From: a virus
Lineage: Duplodnaviria; Heunggongvirae; Uroviricota; Caudoviricetes
Virus record (IMG/VR): IMGVR_UViG_2579778961_000003
Direction: 5' to 3' (one strand)
DNA length: 40,444 bases
The notes below the pieces were generated by a model. That model saw only the letters and a list, made by a program, of their open reading frames with translations, did no database searches and had not been told where the DNA came from. Positions 13,846-35,425 of the stretch are shown piece after piece (the first letter of the stretch is position 1; every line of letters starts with the position of its first letter). A program made the position numbers and the translations under genes.

Positions 13846-15272
13846 CAGTTGCCCCCTTTCAGGGTTAACAGGTATTCCGAGGTGATCTCAGTCTCAAACG
13901 TCAGTCGCTCCAGCGGCGGTGGTGGCGTATATTTGTAGCTCAGCAACAGGTGCCCGGCGGCCAGCTCCGTCTCCGGATTGCGGGCCGGATCAAACCAGCA
14001 ACGGAAGCCCAGTACCGCACCATCACCAGTCATTTTGCGACCGTAGGCGTTGACCGACTCCGTCAGTGCATCAATCAGCGCCTGAGTAATCGGCATGTCG
14101 ATGTACTGCTGGCTGAAATAACGAATGGACTCGTTGATCACATCACCGGTGCGGCGAACGTTCTCAAAGTTACGCATATGGGTGACCGTTGGCCATGCTG
14201 CCGTCCGGTTACCCCACAGACGAAGGCCGCTGCCGTAACTGCTGAATACCGTGGTGATCCCCTGTTCGTTAAGCAGGTTCACCTCACTCTGCGGGTCATC
14301 AATCATCGCGGACAGCTGGCGCTCCACGCCGGTGATCCCCAGAATCTCCTGATTGGAGGATGACCACCAGTAGCCCTTGTCCAGATCGACTCTGGCACGC
14401 AGACCTGCTGCACGCTGGCTGAGCGGCTCCAGACGCTCTGTGTTTGTCACCGGGTCATATACCTTCACATGCGGATAGCACAGACGGACGCGGTCGGAGC
14501 TGGTATTGAAGTTGATGGTGCCTTCCGGGCCACGACCTGCCAGAGCCTGTGCAAAGGTGGTACCGACAGGCGCATCAATGTAGGTTACCGCGCCCAGCTT
14601 CTCTGCCATGGCGATAAGCTCAACTGCGACACTCTTCTGGGTGCAGAACACCGGCGCAATCAGAATTTTGGCGAAATAGCCGTACAGGTTGAAGCTGTCG
14701 TTAAGCAGCTTCATGCCGGTTCGGTTTCCGGCGCTGTTCACCCCGCCGATGATGTCCGCCGCAGTCACCTTCGACGGGTCCGCGTACTCATAGCTCACCT
14801 TCACGCTGCCACCGGCCTCAATAGCCTTGCCCAGGTTCGTGAGCACACCCGCCTGCGCATCAACACGGTAGTCCGTGTTCGCCGTGTGGGTGGTGCTGCC
14901 TTCACTGTTTTTCACCACCACATTAGCGACAACCGGATGCGCCAGTCTGGCCTGCCCTGTCGATTTGTCAAAGGTAACCACCTCATCCTCGATCGCCGTT
15001 TTATGTTTCGCCGGGTCGAGGACGTTAATGACCAGAACGGTGCCTGCACCATGGTCATAAATCGCATCCAGCGCCTGCGGAATGGTAAAGCCGGTGAACT
15101 GGCTGCCAAATGCCGCTGCGTCTTTCTCAGACAGGCACTGTACCAGCGTATTGACATCCCCCATCGGGGCGGTACCAATCAGGCCAATAACGGCAGATTT
15201 CACCGTTTTAACCGGGCGGGCACCGTTTTCCACCTCAATGGTTTCGGGACCATGCAGATAGTTAGCTGCCAT
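13845..15272 (-). CDS. Tail sheath protein
   Basis: 475 aa; size and position typical of contractile tail sheath (Mu L / P2 FI family). Confidence 0.9.
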   Translation of the reverse strand: MAANYLHGPETIEVENGARPVKTVKSAVIGLIGTAPMGDVNTLVQCLSEKDAAAFGSQFTGFTIPQALDAIYDHGAGTVLVINVLDPAKHKTAIEDEVVTFDKSTGQARLAHPVVANVVVKNSEGSTTHTANTDYRVDAQAGVLTNLGKAIEAGGSVKVSYEYADPSKVTAADIIGGVNSAGNRTGMKLLNDSFNLYGYFAKILIAPVFCTQKSVAVELIAMAEKLGAVTYIDAPVGTTFAQALAGRGPEGTINFNTSSDRVRLCYPHVKVYDPVTNTERLEPLSQRAAGLRARVDLDKGYWWSSSNQEILGITGVERQLSAMIDDPQSEVNLLNEQGITTVFSSYGSGLRLWGNRTAAWPTVTHMRNFENVRRTGDVINESIRYFSQQYIDMPITQALIDALTESVNAYGRKMTGDGAVLGFRCWFDPARNPETELAAGHLLLSYKYTPPPPLERLTFETEITSEYLLTLKGGN

Positions 15273-29727: not shown

Positions 29728-30107
29728 CGCATAATCCGGGATACGCATTCAGCGATGACTGCATTTTCACCGGTTTTTACTGCATCCAGAAGTGACTCTT
29801 TAAATGGTACGGGCCGGGGCTGCAGAAAGGTCGGCATGGCATTGAGCAGACAGAGCGTTTTTTCCGTGAGGACGACATCAGCCGCTCCCACAGCCAGCAA
29901 CTGAGAGTAACGAATATAGCTGTTATCCCGAAGCCATATCAGCGTATCAATAAAACACCGGCACTTTTTCTGGTCGTGATCAACCTGGTCCGGGATATCG
30001 AAAAAACCAGAATAAATCAAAACCTGAGGTGCCGGATGCGTGTTCAGTAATCGGCAGAATATTTTGCCGGTGAGTACATAAAAATCATCATTTAAGGAGT
30101 GCATCAT
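29703..30107 (-). CDS. Hypothetical protein
   Basis: 134 aa ORF convergent with and overlapping the 3' end of the P-loop gene by 25 bp; weak RBS; lower-GC region. Confidence 0.4.
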   Translation of the reverse strand: MMHSLNDDFYVLTGKIFCRLLNTHPAPQVLIYSGFFDIPDQVDHDQKKCRCFIDTLIWLRDNSYIRYSQLLAVGAADVVLTEKTLCLLNAMPTFLQPRPVPFKESLLDAVKTGENAVIAECVSRIMRYVFNERK

Positions 30108-30321
30108 GAATCCCCGATTAACGTTAACAGAACATCAGCGCCGTGCTGAAGCAGTGAACAATGTTCTGGAAGATATTATCCGGTTATACCGCGGAGAACT
30201 GAGTGTCTGTCGTGCCGCTTTTCATTTTCAGGGAATACAAAAGCAGTTTGATACTTCTGTTTTTGCAGAAGGTATTACTTATGCCCTGGACCGGATAAGG
30301 TCAGAAAATCGCCCCGGATAA
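30106..30321 (+). CDS. Hypothetical small protein
   Basis: 71 aa ORF with strong AAGGAG RBS 6 nt upstream of the ATG. Confidence 0.5.
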   Translation: MNPRLTLTEHQRRAEAVNNVLEDIIRLYRGELSVCRAAFHFQGIQKQFDTSVFAEGITYALDRIRSENRPG

Positions 30322-30377
30322 TCCCTAAACCACATTAACAGAAATCCCGCCATCCCTGCCGCATCATGAAAGAACGA

Positions 30378-30405
30378 CCAGCCCGGCACCCGAAAGCCGG
30401 GCTGG
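30378..30405. other. Perfect 10-bp stem hairpin (possible terminator or RNA structure)
   Basis: ccagcccggc-acccgaaa-gccgggctgg; no strong T-tract on the plus strand, modest T-rich run on the minus strand. Confidence 0.4.
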
Positions 30406-30511
30406 TCATCGCCCCACAGGAATGCGCTGTGAGCCGACCAAGGTTCAGTCAGTCTCGCGAGACCTGACCAGACTGCCATATTTTTTAATAATTGTAAAAG
30501 GCTTGCAGATT

Positions 30512-31276
30512 ATGAAAATGCAGACATTACCCATCGTGCCGTGGATTGGTGGCAAACGCCGCCTTGCAAAACACATTCTGCCGCTGTTTCCGGCGCATGA
30601 ATGTTATGTGGAGCCGTTTTGTGGGGCAGCAGCGCTCTATTTTCTTAAGACACCCGGCAAGATCGAAGTCATCAATGATATCAACGGTGAACTGGTGAAT
30701 CTGTACCGGGTGGTAAAGCATCACCTGGAAGAATTTGTCCGCCAGTTCAAATGGGCGCTGGTCAGCCGTCAGATCTACAAATGGCTGCAGATCACCCCGG
30801 AAGAAACACTGACGGATATCCAGCGTGCGGCACGGTTCTACTACCTTCAGAAGCAGGCGTTTGGCGGCAAGGTGGCAGAGCACAGCTTCGGTACCTCCAC
30901 CACATCCCCGCCACGCTTCAACCTGCTACGTATTGAAGAAGAACTGTCAGCGGCACACCTGCGGCTTTCCAGAACAGTCATAGAACACATGGACTGGCAA
31001 CAGTGCATTGAGCGTTATGATCGTCCGCACACGCTGTTCTACTGCGACCCACCGTACCTGGGTACGGAAGGCTATGGTGTGGATTTTCCTGAAGGGAACT
31101 ACTCGCGGCTGGCAGAGCTGGCCCGGTGCATCAGAGGAAAAATGATAATTTCGGTGAACGACATCCCGCAGATGCGCGAGGTGTTCACTGGACTGAACAT
31201 ACAGACAGTGAATATCAACTACAGTCTGGCGGGTAAACCCACGCCGCGCCGTGAACTGCTAATCTGCAACTTCTGA
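30512..31276 (+). CDS. DNA N6-adenine methyltransferase (Dam-like, orphan)
   Basis: Motif I EPFCGAAALYF and motif IV DPPY (LFYCDPPYLGT); no adjacent endonuclease candidate; start chosen at ATG 30512 rather than ORF-track 30422. Confidence 0.9.
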   Translation: MKMQTLPIVPWIGGKRRLAKHILPLFPAHECYVEPFCGAAALYFLKTPGKIEVINDINGELVNLYRVVKHHLEEFVRQFKWALVSRQIYKWLQITPEETLTDIQRAARFYYLQKQAFGGKVAEHSFGTSTTSPPRFNLLRIEEELSAAHLRLSRTVIEHMDWQQCIERYDRPHTLFYCDPPYLGTEGYGVDFPEGNYSRLAELARCIRGKMIISVNDIPQMREVFTGLNIQTVNINYSLAGKPTPRRELLICNF

Positions 31277-31283
31277 AACAAAA

Positions 31284-31306
31284 CCGGAAAGCACAATGCT
31301 TTCCGG
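31284..31306 (-). terminator. Probable terminator of the repressor transcript
   Basis: Hairpin ccggaaagc-acaat-gctttccgg; on the minus strand it is followed by TTTTGTTTC. Confidence 0.5.
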
Positions 31307-31392
31307 TAAACCAAACAACTTCCACTATGTCACTGGCGATGTTTTCTGAAAGCATCCAGATCAACCACCTGTCCTTTGTGTCCGGGTCAGTA

Positions 31393-31749
31393 TCAGCCTG
31401 CGATTTTTCCTGGTTTTGGCTGAGTATAGAATCGCCCAATCTCAAGAAATGAGCGTTGTTGGTCTGGTGTCATGTCGTCAAAAGTATCTATTAGTTTTTG
31501 TTTTTCTGGGGAAATTTGATTCTGGTTTCTAGTCATACCATCTGTGCTCATTCCAGTGAGCAACCAATTTACATCAACATTAAACTCTTGATGCATCTTT
31601 AACAGAAACTCCCCTCCAGGCATCGCCTTTCCATTTTCAATCTGACTGATACCACCATTAGAAATACCTAAACGAGCTGCAAATTCTCTCTGGTTCAACC
31701 CTGCTTTCTTCCTCACAGAAATAACGCGCTCTCCTATATCTTTGCTCAT
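31393..31749 (-). CDS. Prophage repressor (HTH XRE family; Mu c-equivalent)
   Basis: N-terminal HTH (LNQREFAARLGISNGGISQIENGK), divergently transcribed from the early operon, operator palindrome in the intergenic region. Confidence 0.75.
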   Translation of the reverse strand: MSKDIGERVISVRKKAGLNQREFAARLGISNGGISQIENGKAMPGGEFLLKMHQEFNVDVNWLLTGMSTDGMTRNQNQISPEKQKLIDTFDDMTPDQQRSFLEIGRFYTQPKPGKIAG

Positions 31750-31789
31750 AAAAGTGAATCTCTATCTTGATATGCTCATAATTATGAGC
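31743..31789. promoter_or_regulatory. Operator/early promoter region with 18-bp perfect palindrome
   Basis: TGCTCATAATTATGAGCA at 31772-31789 and a TGCTCATA half-site at 31743-31750 overlapping the repressor start codon. Confidence 0.6.
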
Positions 31790-31842
31790 AATAATCTAAC
31801 ACATATAAGGCAAACATCATTGCATCAACAAAGGAGACAACG

Positions 31843-32031
31843 ATGACTGCAGAACAAGTCAAAGCTCTCTTCCGCCAGCGCGGGATCACTTTCACCCGCT
31901 GGGCAGAAGAAAACGGCTACAACCGCAATGAGGTATACCGCGTTCTCAACGGGCAGACCAAAGCCCGTTACGGTAAATCCCATGAAATCGCCGTGAAGTT
32001 GGGACTGAAATCAACAGCTCAGGCGGCCTAA
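31843..32031 (+). CDS. Small DNA-binding early regulator (Ner/Cro-equivalent)
   Basis: 62 aa basic protein, first rightward gene after the operator, AAAGGAG RBS; assignment by position rather than clear Ner motif match. Confidence 0.5.
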   Translation: MTAEQVKALFRQRGITFTRWAEENGYNRNEVYRVLNGQTKARYGKSHEIAVKLGLKSTAQAA

Positions 32032-32077
32032 ATATTTTGAGTCTTTGTAAAAGGTTATCACATATCGCAAAAGAGGT

Positions 32078-32392
32078 ATGCAGATGAGTAAGACGAATGT
32101 TTCAAGCTCCGGCAGTCGCATCCTCCGGGTACTCAAAGCGCTGCGCGGTCATGCCCTGAACGGTATTTCTAACGGTGAACTGGCGACAGCACTGCACGAG
32201 TCACCGGCAAACATCAACCGGGCACTCAACACCCTCATTGAAGAAGGGCTGGCTCTGAAACTGGAGAACGGACGTTTTGCACCGGGCATCCAGTTACTGC
32301 AGATCGCCATGGCCCACAGTAACGAGATGGCACGTGCACAGGATCGTATTAACGAAATTAACCAACGTGTCATTTCAGGTAGTCGTTTGTAA
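32078..32392 (+). CDS. Winged-helix DNA-binding protein (putative transcriptional regulator)
   Basis: 104 aa; HTH-like segment ISNGELATALHESPANINRALNTLIEEGL; AAGAGG RBS. Confidence 0.45.
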   Translation: MQMSKTNVSSSGSRILRVLKALRGHALNGISNGELATALHESPANINRALNTLIEEGLALKLENGRFAPGIQLLQIAMAHSNEMARAQDRINEINQRVISGSRL

Positions 32393-32402
32393 GGAGTAAT
32401 CA

Positions 32403-33323
32403 ATGGGACGTACCAAATCACCGATTAACACTGAACTGAACGCCGATGTACCGCTGTCGGATGATCTCAACGTCAGCCTGAATGCCATGACACAGCATCG
32501 CATGGAGATCATGCAGCAGTTTGGTGATGGACTGCCTTATGAACGTGAACGCATCGTTCACGAAGCACGTTTTTATATGGCGCAGAGTGCTGAATCTATG
32601 TTGGAAGCGGGTAAGCGGCTGATCATCTTAAAAGAAAATGAACCGCATGGTGATTTCACAAATATTCTGGAAAACGACCTCGGATTAGCACCACAGGTAG
32701 CTCGTCGCATGATGCAGGCCAGCGTGAAATTTCTCGGCAATGGAGATGAACAGCCAAAACGCTCAGCGCTGAGCGTTTTGGGAAAAACCAAGTTATATGA
32801 ACTGATGGTTCTGGATGACGAAGAACTCGACGCATTAGCTGATGGTGGAACCGTCGCCGGTGCAACGCTTGATGATATTGATCGCATGACCAGCCGCGAA
32901 CTGAAGGCCGCCCTGCGTGAAGCGCGCGAAACCAACGCAGCTCAGCAACAGGTGCTTGCCGGAAAGGACGAAAAAATCAACGAACTGGCCACAAAACTGG
33001 AGAAGAAATCGCGCCTGCAACCTCCGCCGCCAGACGAAGAACTGAAAAAATTGCGGGCGGAAGTGACGGCATTAGCGGTTGAGGCCGAATCGGCTATCGC
33101 CGTCCGGCTGTCCAGTGTTTTTGAGACCCTGTGTGAATACTGCACCAAAAACATGATCGATACCCCCAGAGATTTCATGGCCGGTCTGGTCTGCCAGATT
33201 GAACGCAGTGTTCATGCATTACGTGAGACGTTTGACCTTGAGGCCGCTCCATCGGGTAACGATGCCCCCGCCTGGCTGACCGAACCGGAACCTGAAATCA
33301 ACCGACCGGAGGATATGCAGTAA
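32403..33323 (+). CDS. Hypothetical early protein
   Basis: 306 aa ORF with acidic/coiled-coil regions between regulator genes and transposase. Confidence 0.5.
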   Translation: MGRTKSPINTELNADVPLSDDLNVSLNAMTQHRMEIMQQFGDGLPYERERIVHEARFYMAQSAESMLEAGKRLIILKENEPHGDFTNILENDLGLAPQVARRMMQASVKFLGNGDEQPKRSALSVLGKTKLYELMVLDDEELDALADGGTVAGATLDDIDRMTSRELKAALREARETNAAQQQVLAGKDEKINELATKLEKKSRLQPPPPDEELKKLRAEVTALAVEAESAIAVRLSSVFETLCEYCTKNMIDTPRDFMAGLVCQIERSVHALRETFDLEAAPSGNDAPAWLTEPEPEINRPEDMQ

Positions 33324-33640
33324 TGAATACGAATAACACACAAAATACCCTGATGGACAGCCCGGAGGCACTGGGGCACGCACTGTGTAATCTGCTGCCG
33401 GAGATGGTGCAGGGTTTCCGCGTGGTGACCCCTTCCGGTGAAATCTGCGTACCCGCACAGGAGACGCACCCGTTTGTACTGACGATGGAGGTGATGCTGA
33501 TGCAGCAGATAAGACGTCTGCAGAATCAGTCAGCATTACGCCCGGTAGTTGCACCGCAACCGGTAAATACCGTGGTGAAAACCTGCGATGGCGAAACACT
33601 GTGCGACCTCGCCAGAAAAATTGCCGCCAGAATCGGATAA
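33323..33640 (+). CDS. Hypothetical early protein
   Basis: 105 aa ORF, start overlaps upstream stop. Confidence 0.4.
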   Translation: MNTNNTQNTLMDSPEALGHALCNLLPEMVQGFRVVTPSGEICVPAQETHPFVLTMEVMLMQQIRRLQNQSALRPVVAPQPVNTVVKTCDGETLCDLARKIAARIG

Positions 33641-33655
33641 CAGGGAAGACAAGCT

Positions 33656-35425
33656 ATGACCCCGGCACTGACTGAAAAACTGGTTGAAACAGCCCGCGCG
33701 GCACGTGACGCGGGGCATGGTAAACGCGGTGCAATATACGACGCTGCCTGTGCTGAACTTGGCATGTCCCGCGCCACTCTGCTGCGCAGGCTGAAGGAGG
33801 TATCTGTGACTGATAAACGCAAAAAACGCGCCGATGCCGGGCGCAGCGCCCTGACCCGCGACGAAGCCGCGCTGATATCTGCCACACTGCGTGAGGCCAC
33901 CCGCAAGAACGGTAAGCGTCTCTATTCCATCGCAGATGCAGTGGAAACCCTGCGGGCTAACGGCTTTATCACCGCAGGCAGAACAGATGAAACCACCAGT
34001 GAGTTTTTCCCGTTGTCTGAAGATGCCATCAGCCGTGCTCTGCGTAACTATGGCCTGCACCCGGAACAACTGGATGCCCCTGCACCACATACCGAAGTGG
34101 CCAGTCTGCATCCCAATCATGTCTGGCAGATTGACGCCTCACTCTGCACGCTTTACTACCTGAGCAATGGACATAAAGGGCTGCAGGTGATGGACAGCGC
34201 GAAGTTCTACAAGAACAAGCCCGCTAACCTTGCCCGTATCGCCAGTGACCGCGTGTGGAGTTACGAGATTACCGACCATGCCAGCGGCTGGATTTACGTT
34301 GAGTATGTGACGGGCGCGGAATCAGGTGAGAACCTGTGTTCTGTGCTTATCAACGCCATGCAGGAGCGTGGCGGCGCAGACGTGCTGCACGGCGTGCCGA
34401 AAATACTCTATCTCGACCCCGGCTCGGCAAACACCGCGGGTATGACGAAAAACATGTGCCGCTCACTGGGCATCGACCTGATAGCGCACAAGCCGCATAA
34501 CGCCCGCGCCACCGGACAGGTGGAAAAGGCGCGTGACATTATCGAACGCAAGCTGGAGCCGGGTCTGAAGTTCCGGCCGGTTCACAGTCTGGAAGAACTC
34601 AACGCGCTGGCCGCGAAATGGCGCAGCCACTTTAACGCCACGGCTGTTCACAGCCGCCACGGTAAAACCCGCACGGATATCTGGCTGAAGATTACTGCTG
34701 AGCAGCTGAAAAAAGCGCCTTCCGTTGAGGTATGTCGTGAACTGGCTGTGGCGGCACCAGAACTCCGCAAAGTCACGCCAAAACTTCGTGTCTCGTTCCG
34801 GGGCACTGAATTTGACGTATCAACGGTACCGGGCGTACTGGTTGGTGAAAAACTGATGATTACCCGTAACCCATGGCGCAGCGATGTGGCACAGGTGGTT
34901 CTGACCGGTGAGGACGGCCACGAGACGTTCTTCCTGGTCGAAGAGGTCAGAAAGAACGAGTTTGGCTTTGCTGAAGGCGCGGCGGTATTTGGCGAAAGTT
35001 ACAAAGCCCTGCCGGAAACCCCGGCACAGATGGCGGCAAAAGAAACCGAAGCGCTGGTTACCGGTACAGACAACGCCGCAGATGCAGCCGCCGCACGCAA
35101 GGCGAAGGCGCTGCCGTTCGGCGGGCGGCTTGACCCGTATAAACATATCGACGACACCACACTTCCGGCCTATATGCCGAAGCGTGGTCAGGCCTCTGAC
35201 GTACGCGGGCCGCGCACTGAACAACGTCCCATGACTCATGTGGAGGCCGCGAAAGCCCTGCGCGATAAGTTCAGCGCCGACGGCCTTACCTGGACGCCGG
35301 AACATTACCGCCAGTTAACGGCACAGTACCCGGACGGCGTACCGGAAGCCGCACTGGATGAAGTCATGGCCACGCTGACCACACCGGCCCGCAGCAGTGT
35401 TATCAGCATTGTTAACGGCAACTGA
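33656..35425 (+). CDS. DDE transposase (Mu A-like)
   Basis: 589 aa; N-terminal DNA-binding region; integrase-core-like HPNHVWQIDAS segment; followed by an AAA+ B-like gene. Confidence 0.8.
   Translation: MTPALTEKLVETARAARDAGHGKRGAIYDAACAELGMSRATLLRRLKEVSVTDKRKKRADAGRSALTRDEAALISATLREATRKNGKRLYSIADAVETLRANGFITAGRTDETTSEFFPLSEDAISRALRNYGLHPEQLDAPAPHTEVASLHPNHVWQIDASLCTLYYLSNGHKGLQVMDSAKFYKNKPANLARIASDRVWSYEITDHASGWIYVEYVTGAESGENLCSVLINAMQERGGADVLHGVPKILYLDPGSANTAGMTKNMCRSLGIDLIAHKPHNARATGQVEKARDIIERKLEPGLKFRPVHSLEELNALAAKWRSHFNATAVHSRHGKTRTDIWLKITAEQLKKAPSVEVCRELAVAAPELRKVTPKLRVSFRGTEFDVSTVPGVLVGEKLMITRNPWRSDVAQVVLTGEDGHETFFLVEEVRKNEFGFAEGAAVFGESYKALPETPAQMAAKETEALVTGTDNAADAAAARKAKALPFGGRLDPYKHIDDTTLPAYMPKRGQASDVRGPRTEQRPMTHVEAAKALRDKFSADGLTWTPEHYRQLTAQYPDGVPEAALDEVMATLTTPARSSVISIVNGN

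Follow-up and report, generated by a model that had tools for sequence, protein, structure and literature searches.

A putative phage repressor operator in the predicted early promoter of a BcepMu-like prophage, with candidate helper sites over the start codon and inside the repressor gene

We analyzed the immunity region of IMG/VR virus record IMGVR_UViG_2579778961_000003, a Caudoviricetes sequence of 40,444 nucleotides (hereafter the window, meaning this whole stretch of DNA), in which a leftward gene for a 118-residue repressor diverges from a rightward operon that begins with a gene for a Ner-like DNA-binding protein. Between the two lies a perfect palindrome of 18 base pairs (bp), here called O1. 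It is very likely the high-affinity operator of the prophage's own 118-residue repressor, situated within the predicted early promoter Pe and assisted by two helper sites, O2 over the repressor start codon and O3 inside the repressor gene (Table 1). Sequence analysis and comparison of related loci establish the sites, where they stand with respect to promoter-like elements, how far they are conserved and that they covary with the DNA-binding domain of the repressor.

O1 reads TGCTCATAATTATGAGCA, is built of two gapless 9-bp arms and occurs as a single copy in the window, within the 93 bp that separate the repressor gene from the Ner-like gene (31750-31842). An earlier note on this DNA, made from the letters alone, had proposed a perfect palindromic operator between a repressor and an early operon. 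This proposal is supported in silico: the leftward open reading frame (ORF) encodes an HTH_3/Cro-C1-type protein, and the palindrome sits in the spacer of the rightward promoter; its position had been given as 31772-31789 and has to be moved one base to the right, to 31773-31790. The palindrome by itself is weak evidence because, while the window holds two gapless perfect palindromes with arms of at least 9 bp against 0.19 expected, 18% of 300 dinucleotide shuffles also contain at least one of this kind. The case therefore rests on position and comparison and not on the palindrome alone. The 8-mer TGCTCATA has three exact copies in the 40,444 bases, and all of them lie inside 31743-31790, namely in both arms of O1 and at 31743-31750. 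A search of the whole window for the pattern TGCTCA-N6-TGAGCA gave perfect matches at 31545 and 31773 only. When up to two mismatches were allowed the pattern was matched seven times, against a shuffle mean of 2.08, and none of 100 shuffles reached seven.

The whole 17-bp spacer of Pe and the first base of its -10 hexamer are made up of O1. With 10 of 12 consensus matches Pe is the sole consensus-like sigma-70 promoter on either strand between 31300 and 32200, and it is directed toward the ner-like/transposase operon, with a predicted transcription start near 31802. Related loci keep a -35-like hexamer 16-18 bp upstream of a conserved (A/C/T)ATAAT.

A scan of genome contigs for relatives returned 18 loci, nine of which were useful. 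Repressor orthologs that are 57-78% identical to that of the window were found in Klebsiella, Citrobacter, Serratia, Symbiopectobacterium and metagenomes, and amount to seven further distinct loci, or eight including the window. In the earlier note the absence of the palindrome from related phages with the same repressor was named as the finding that would speak against an operator; we found it present in 7/7 further loci that share the recognition helix NGGISQIE, with the arms TGCTCA/TGAGCA unchanged in each. The central 6 bp vary among the ortholog loci (TAATTA, AAATAA, CAATTA, TAATAA, TTATTG). The 434 and P22 c2 repressors are dimeric readers of palindromes of 14-18 bp, in which central bases that are not contacted modulate affinity, and fixed arms around a variable, A/T-rich center fit this mode of recognition.

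A second line of comparison comes from loci with other repressors. Among enterobacterial prophages of the same family, E. coli included, there are at least six further immunity types (seven with that of the window). When their intergenic regions are aligned, the -10 hexamer marks an abrupt mosaic boundary. On its right side the leader stays conserved, as does the Ner-like gene; on its left side the spacer, the -35 hexamer and the N-terminal domain of the repressor change together. Every immunity type carries a palindrome of its own in the Pe spacer, so that the operator covaries with the DNA-binding domain of the repressor. This palindrome is GGTGAG-N4-TCTGCACC in locus L003, and in other types TGTCCCATTTTTGGGATA or ATCCCATTTATGGGAT, TGTCTAATTTTTTAGACA, GGTTGAAAATTTTCTACC, TATACACGTTTGTGTATA and ATGAGAACAATAGTTCTCAT. 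These comparative data remove doubt that the palindrome is a selected feature.

The two helper sites resemble O1 to different degrees. O2, at a distance of 30 bp from O1, extends over the start codon of the repressor gene (CAT at 31747-31749, the reverse complement of the ATG of the 118-residue ORF) as well as 5' untranslated bases. Here the earlier note had placed a half-site, TGCTCATA, over the start codon; it is found at that place (31743-31750), and is better described as the strong half of a full, weaker site. The orthologs share the O2 consensus TGCTCAT(A/T)AAA(A/G)TGAAT(C/A) at 29-30 bp from O1. O3, TGCTCATTCCAGTGAGCA, matches the arms perfectly and lies 228 bp to the left of O1, and no match as good arose in any of 1000 shuffles of the repressor gene. 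A perfect TGCTCA-N6-TGAGCA stands at exactly -204 from the ATG in all seven further ortholog loci. The codons in its center vary among the orthologs (ACT, ACA, ACG or AGT for Thr; GGA, GGT or GGG for Gly) and those in its arms are fixed; in L011 and L012 the site has grown into a palindrome with 15-bp arms. The suggestion that the repressor might bind at more than one site thus gains in silico support from O1 and O2, and the earlier reading had missed O3 as a third site.

Both helper sites overlap codons for conserved residues, Met-Ser at O2, where the gene starts ATG-AGC-A, and Leu-Leu-Thr-Gly-x-Ser at O3. O1 might consequently be a true operator and O2 and O3 by-products of coding, and the lack of an intragenic site in some immunity types would agree with this; we nevertheless consider it improbable, for the following reasons. 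A synonymous-site test with five orthologs identified 53 amino acid columns that are both invariant and degenerate, and in eight of these the codon itself is identical. Four of the eight are precisely the four such codons that fall in operator arms, Ser2 (AGC in 5/5 orthologs), Leu63, Leu64 and Ser68, all of them six-fold degenerate, whereas identical codons occur in 4/49 of the other columns. The hypergeometric probability of this enrichment, from the counts 53, 8 and 4, is about 2e-4. The constraint on synonymous codons indicates that O2 and O3 are kept as DNA sequences and not merely as coding. Outside the coding sequence, the right half of O2 shows stronger conservation in the intergenic alignment than the spacer beside it. 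Three other immunity types have a copy of their own operator, or a half-site of it, that covers the start codon of their repressor gene and is 29-31 bp away from the main site, and intragenic copies are found in three to four types, at different codons and 176-259 bp from the main operator. Shuffles of the gene gave an equally good intragenic match in 2/1000 cases for the type of L007 and in 5/1000 for that of L018. The type of L002, L003 and L022 has a perfect intragenic GTGCAG-N4-CTGCAC, which is not significant against the O1-derived pattern (215/1000 shuffles).

The palindrome could also be read by a protein other than the leftward repressor, either the Ner-like protein, which is the analogue of Cro, or the product of a small gene for an IclR-like winged helix-turn-helix (wHTH) protein. 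Both are DNA-binding proteins encoded beside the site, and in lambda-type switches Cro and CI use common operators. The heteroimmune loci make this highly unlikely. The Ner-like and wHTH proteins are 98-100% identical in L002 and L003 (99% for the wHTH protein in L004), yet the palindrome is wholly different there. In L003 the contrast with the window is sharpest: the Ner-like protein is 100% and the wHTH protein 99% identical, the N-terminal domain of the repressor is 25% identical, and the operator is unrelated, which argues that the palindrome is read by the repressor and not by either of the other two proteins. Across the other types examined the Ner-like protein is 74-90% identical and the operators differ completely. 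The site changes only alongside the N-terminal domain of the repressor; of the intergenic region, it is the conserved block on the right side of the -10 hexamer that goes along with the Ner-like gene. By these comparisons the Ner-like and wHTH proteins are excluded as the determinants of specificity.

Least credible is that the palindrome works not as protein-binding DNA but as an RNA hairpin, which would act on stability or translation from the 5' leader of the repressor transcript: both strands do fold (7-bp stem; -9.2 and -8.9 kcal/mol, z-scores -3.0 and -4.0) and the palindrome would be transcribed if the repressor promoter lay to the right of O1, but the arms are invariant and free of compensatory changes in 8 distinct loci, as is typical of base-specific contacts by a protein, O2 repeats the arm with nothing for it to pair with, the motif changes with the DNA-binding domain of the repressor, both candidate repressor promoters start inside the palindrome and would leave the hairpin incomplete, and a search of 30000-34000 against Rfam with E values up to 1 gave no family match.

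The protein itself has the features expected of a reader of such a site. The repressor matches HTH_3 (PF01381), a Cro/C1-type helix-turn-helix (HTH) domain, with E 4.6e-15 and 55.8 bits against a cut-off of 23. Its N-terminal domain can be aligned with P22 c2 and, at E 3.4e-8, with the 434 repressor, and it superposes on the P22 c2-operator complex at 1.2 Å over 63 columns. A domain search of the 118 residues found no Peptidase_S24 match, and thus no RecA-cleavable domain of that kind. The AlphaFold (AF2) model, with a mean predicted local distance difference test (pLDDT) score of 79, comprises five helices, a linker at 66-80 and C-terminal helices at 81-92 and 95-109. The best full-length Foldseek match of this model is the tetrameric SinR (1b0n; 110 columns, E 2.9e-4, template modeling (TM) scores 0.47/0.54), and the Phi106 repressor-AimX complex is also among the matches.

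The last 40 residues of the repressor are 52-75% identical in three heteroimmune repressors (L002/L003, L004 and L007), and P0020 and P0023, with their differing HTH domains, have nearly the same tail. Because otherwise unlike repressors have it in common, the tail is a shared module, and the two helices plausibly serve oligomerization. The repressor is accordingly a domain mosaic, with the tail at residues of about 79-118 (31393-31515) in a comparison with P0020, P0023 and L002-L007. Taken together, the shared tail and the break at the -10 hexamer define an exchangeable immunity cassette that runs from the repressor linker to the -10 hexamer of Pe. When tblastn was used to look in the window for a paralogue of the tail, which might act as a SinI-like antagonist, it found the repressor alone; an antagonist unrelated to the tail may exist.

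From these observations we infer physical binding, the formation of dimers and tetramers, which promoter serves the repressor gene, and either looping or a roadblock, and we propose the following mechanism. A repressor dimer would bind O1 with one 434/P22-type HTH on each TGCTCA arm. Since O1 occupies the spacer and the first base of the -10 hexamer, bound repressor would exclude RNA polymerase; with Pe occluded the ner-like/transposase operon would stay silent and lysogeny would be maintained. A second dimer would fill O2, the weaker site, which lies on the same DNA face at a distance of about three helical turns; this filling would probably be cooperative, through the two-helix C-terminal tail. 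With O2 covering the start of the repressor gene, a high level of repressor would also lower its own synthesis, and the location of O2 over the 5' end of the gene makes such negative autoregulation plausible. O1 and O2 between them also overlie each of the candidate promoters for the repressor. O3, finally, may either loop to O1/O2 or block the elongating polymerase, which would tighten both repression and autoregulation. It is placed as an auxiliary operator of the lac O2 or gal OI kind would be, 100-400 bp away in transcribed DNA.

Several observations weigh against this reading or against parts of it. Pe is a predicted promoter, recognized as a consensus match and not mapped. The right arm of O2 matches in 3/6 bases only. 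On the minus strand of 31300-32200 no repressor promoter passes the thresholds of the promoter scan, and our own scoring yields only two weak candidates, both overlapped by O1. One is CTTATA-17-CATAAT, whose -10 lies at the center of O1; the other is an extended -10, TGTTAGATT (TGtTAGATT), at 31801-31793 on the minus strand, of which the TG and the TAGATT are conserved in most relatives and the middle base is variable. Searches with the repressor tail alone against Pfam and the sequences of the Protein Data Bank (PDB) gave nothing significant, the SinR/SinI multimerization domain included, so that the likeness of the tail to SinR stands on the model of pLDDT 79 and the Foldseek match of E 2.9e-4. 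By the gene shuffles an intragenic site is absent or not significant in the types of L004, L005 and L006, and the L003 copy likewise falls short of significance under the O1-derived pattern. The distances from O1 to the intragenic site in four immunity types, 176, 191, 228 and 259 bp, have no helical phase in common, which argues against a strictly phased loop. A roadblock or a flexible loop would agree better than a strictly phased loop with the variable positions of O3-type sites and their lack of a shared phase, and the distances neither prove nor exclude the predicted looping by the repressor. In the literature searched we found no binding or expression experiment for this phage.

The layout can be compared with several known switches. 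As in 434, P22 and lambda, a Cro/C1 HTH domain is paired with a symmetric 18-bp operator with fixed arms and a variable A/T-rich, presumably uncontacted center. As in these phages, too, the operator lies over the core of the lytic promoter (here the predicted Pe), the intergenic region between the divergent genes is short, the sites are several and differ in quality, and immunity specificity resides in the repressor-operator pair. Unlike the repressors of these phages, the protein described here has a two-helix tail of roughly 40 residues in place of an S24 peptidase or RecA-cleavable domain. The sites are about 30 bp apart, with one more 228 bp off inside the repressor gene, whereas those of 434, P22 and lambda are three adjacent ones, and the Ner-like Cro analogue has no share in the type-specific operators.

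The Mu switch consists of O1-O3, Pe and Pc; its c repressor is a winged-helix protein homologous to the N-terminal domain of MuA, and its operator doubles as the transposition enhancer. Like Mu, the window represents a transposable phage with a leftward repressor, a rightward ner-A-B operon, three repressor sites and a second regulator of Ner type, and the ORF map, the protein domains and the annotation of Escherichia phage PhiKM agree in placing the repressor divergent from the ner-transposase A-B operon. Unlike Mu, it has an XRE-type HTH repressor and simple palindromic operators. A Mu-style homology between repressor and transposase was looked for by BLASTP, which gave no alignment (best E 21).

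In the B3-like Pseudomonas phages B3 and Fc02, a lambda-CI-like HTH repressor diverges from ner, with overlapping promoters pC2 and pE in an intergenic region of roughly 106 bp, and Fc02 has in addition an upstream promoter pC1 and overlapping exclusion genes (PMC9936078). The divergent repressor/ner layout and the similarly short region are shared with the window, whose ner gene has blastn matches to these phages. Family and length of the repressor differ, and neither pC1 nor the exclusion genes, as presented in the retrieved passages of that source, are seen here; those passages give promoters and leave operators undefined.

As with lac O2 in lacZ and gal OI in galE, there is a second good operator a few hundred bp away inside a transcribed coding sequence; in contrast to these, it is the repressor's own gene that contains the intragenic site. 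The model hints at a possible further likeness to SinR in the HTH domain followed by a C-terminal helical pair, with the difference that the tail has no SinR/SinI match at the level of Pfam. By analogy, then, the switch would operate in the manner of a 434/P22-type operator-repressor pair, placed within a genome layout of Mu/B3 type. It departs from these models in four ways: no cleavable domain, operators unshared by the second regulator, no repressor-transposase homology, and an operator inside the repressor gene.

A broader idea, which we put forward as tentative and somewhat doubtful, is that enterobacterial BcepMu-like prophages may possess a modular switch, in which the DNA-binding domain of the repressor can be swapped together with three operators that match it, one of them encoded within the repressor gene by the choice of synonymous codons, apparently independently in several heteroimmune lineages. 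If this were true, the self-embedded operator, whether it works by a loop or as a roadblock, would be a required design feature and not an accident. The switch is of an ordinary type, and the conceptual gain beyond those of lambda, 434, P22 and Mu is small. It had itself not been described in the literature searched (for PhiKM, BcepMu operators and the operator sequence), where no paper giving the operator sequence or describing BcepMu-type operators was found. The operator set may serve as a handle for predicting mutual immunity among BcepMu-like prophages, for building induction reporters of this prophage and for testing a switch that is compact and has three sites, the third of them within the repressor gene.

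Table 1. Predicted and observed features of the immunity region (positions in the window)
Feature	Position	Strand	Description
Terminator-like hairpin	31283..31307	-	11-bp stem, then TTTGTTT; would end the repressor transcript
Repressor gene, 118 residues	31393..31749	-	HTH domain 5-65, disordered linker 66-80, C-terminal helices 81-109
O3, intragenic operator (putative)	31545..31562	.	TGCTCA-TTCCAG-TGAGCA, over codons Leu63-Leu64-Thr-Gly-Met-Ser68
O2, secondary operator (putative)	31743..31760	.	TGCTCATAAAAGTGAATC; left arm perfect, right arm weak (TGA only)
Pe, predicted early promoter	31767..31795	+	-35 TTGATA 31767-31772, 17-bp spacer, -10 AATAAT 31790-31795
O1, primary operator (putative)	31773..31790	.	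Perfect palindrome TGCTCA-TAATTA-TGAGCA; its last base is also the first of the -10 hexamer
Block conserved across immunity types	31791..31842	+	Most of the Pe -10, early leader, inverted repeat, Shine-Dalgarno AAGGAG 31831-31836
Ner-like DNA-binding protein, 62 residues, first early gene	31843..32031	+	BcepMu gp16 family, TIGR04111 97.4 bits (cut-off 34)

The segment 31300-33700 of the window (2.4 kb queried) is 100% identical to PhiKM (PQ738613), a BcepMu-like transposable phage whose source is uropathogenic E. coli and whose GenBank taxonomy is Bcepmuvirus. This identity and the match of the Ner-like protein to TIGR04111 (BcepMu_gp16) place the window in Bcepmuvirus. The immunity region, 661 bp in length, is at least 99% identical over its full length in 391 of 5,426 complete E. 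coli genomes (about 7%), a set that takes in an O25b:H4-ST131 strain. Any match to the region is found in 595 of the 5,426, some of which have two or three copies. The GenBank record of PhiKM contains no annotation of the 118-residue repressor gene at 31393-31749 on the minus strand; it instead annotates an ORF of 41 residues on the opposite strand (31327-31452, plus), which overlaps the 3' end of the repressor gene. RefSeq E. coli genomes have the repressor ORF annotated as a helix-turn-helix protein. The terminator-like hairpin beyond it sits between the convergent genes for a DNA adenine methylase and the repressor, and is kept in L003 and L004.

The rightward genes encode the Ner-like protein, the small IclR-like wHTH protein, a DUF3102 protein, a 589-residue DDE transposase with an rve domain, a B-like ATPase and gam, and this set is, judged by its predicted products, the early operon of a transposable phage. 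The Ner-like protein also has weak matches to HTH_35 and HTH_31. The conserved block right of the -10 hexamer is probably a likelier target of this protein than O1. Within the block, in the leader of the early transcript, lies the inverted repeat GCAAACATCATTGC (31810-31823), a candidate binding site of the Ner-like protein or a candidate leader RNA hairpin; L006 has ACAAACATAGTTGT in its place, with both arms changed and the symmetry kept. Among the ortholog loci L008 is the closest, with a repressor that is 78% identical and the same three sites; there the operator region is followed first by a gene for a 182-residue Mor-family protein (859-1407), inserted ahead of the Ner-like gene.

Some further palindromic sequences were noted. 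A perfect one of 28 bp, CCAAAACGCTCAGCGCTGAGCGTTTTGG, lies at 32754-32781 within the DUF3102 gene (RNA fold -19 kcal/mol, z-score -4.0) and has a layout of A-tract, GC-stem and T-tract that resembles a bidirectional attenuator. L002, L003, L005 and L007 have palindromes at the same DUF3102 codon with other inner sequences and peptides (for example CCAAAAGCGACAACGTTGTCGCTTTTGG and CCAAATGTGCCAACGTTGGCACATTTGG), so here the symmetry is conserved and not the sequence; in L004, L006, L009 and L011 a palindrome is absent from this position. Regulation by LexA was rejected: the only match to the pattern CTGT-N8-ACAG sits in a structural gene, at chance level. A candidate fourth site, TGTTCACTGGACTGAACA (TGTTCA-N6-TGAACA), at 31182-31199 in the 3' end of the methylase gene, was rejected, being unconserved in the orthologs and within chance. 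The operator-like TGCCCAGGTTCGTGAGCA at 14828-14845, with one mismatch, lies in a structural gene and is compatible with chance.

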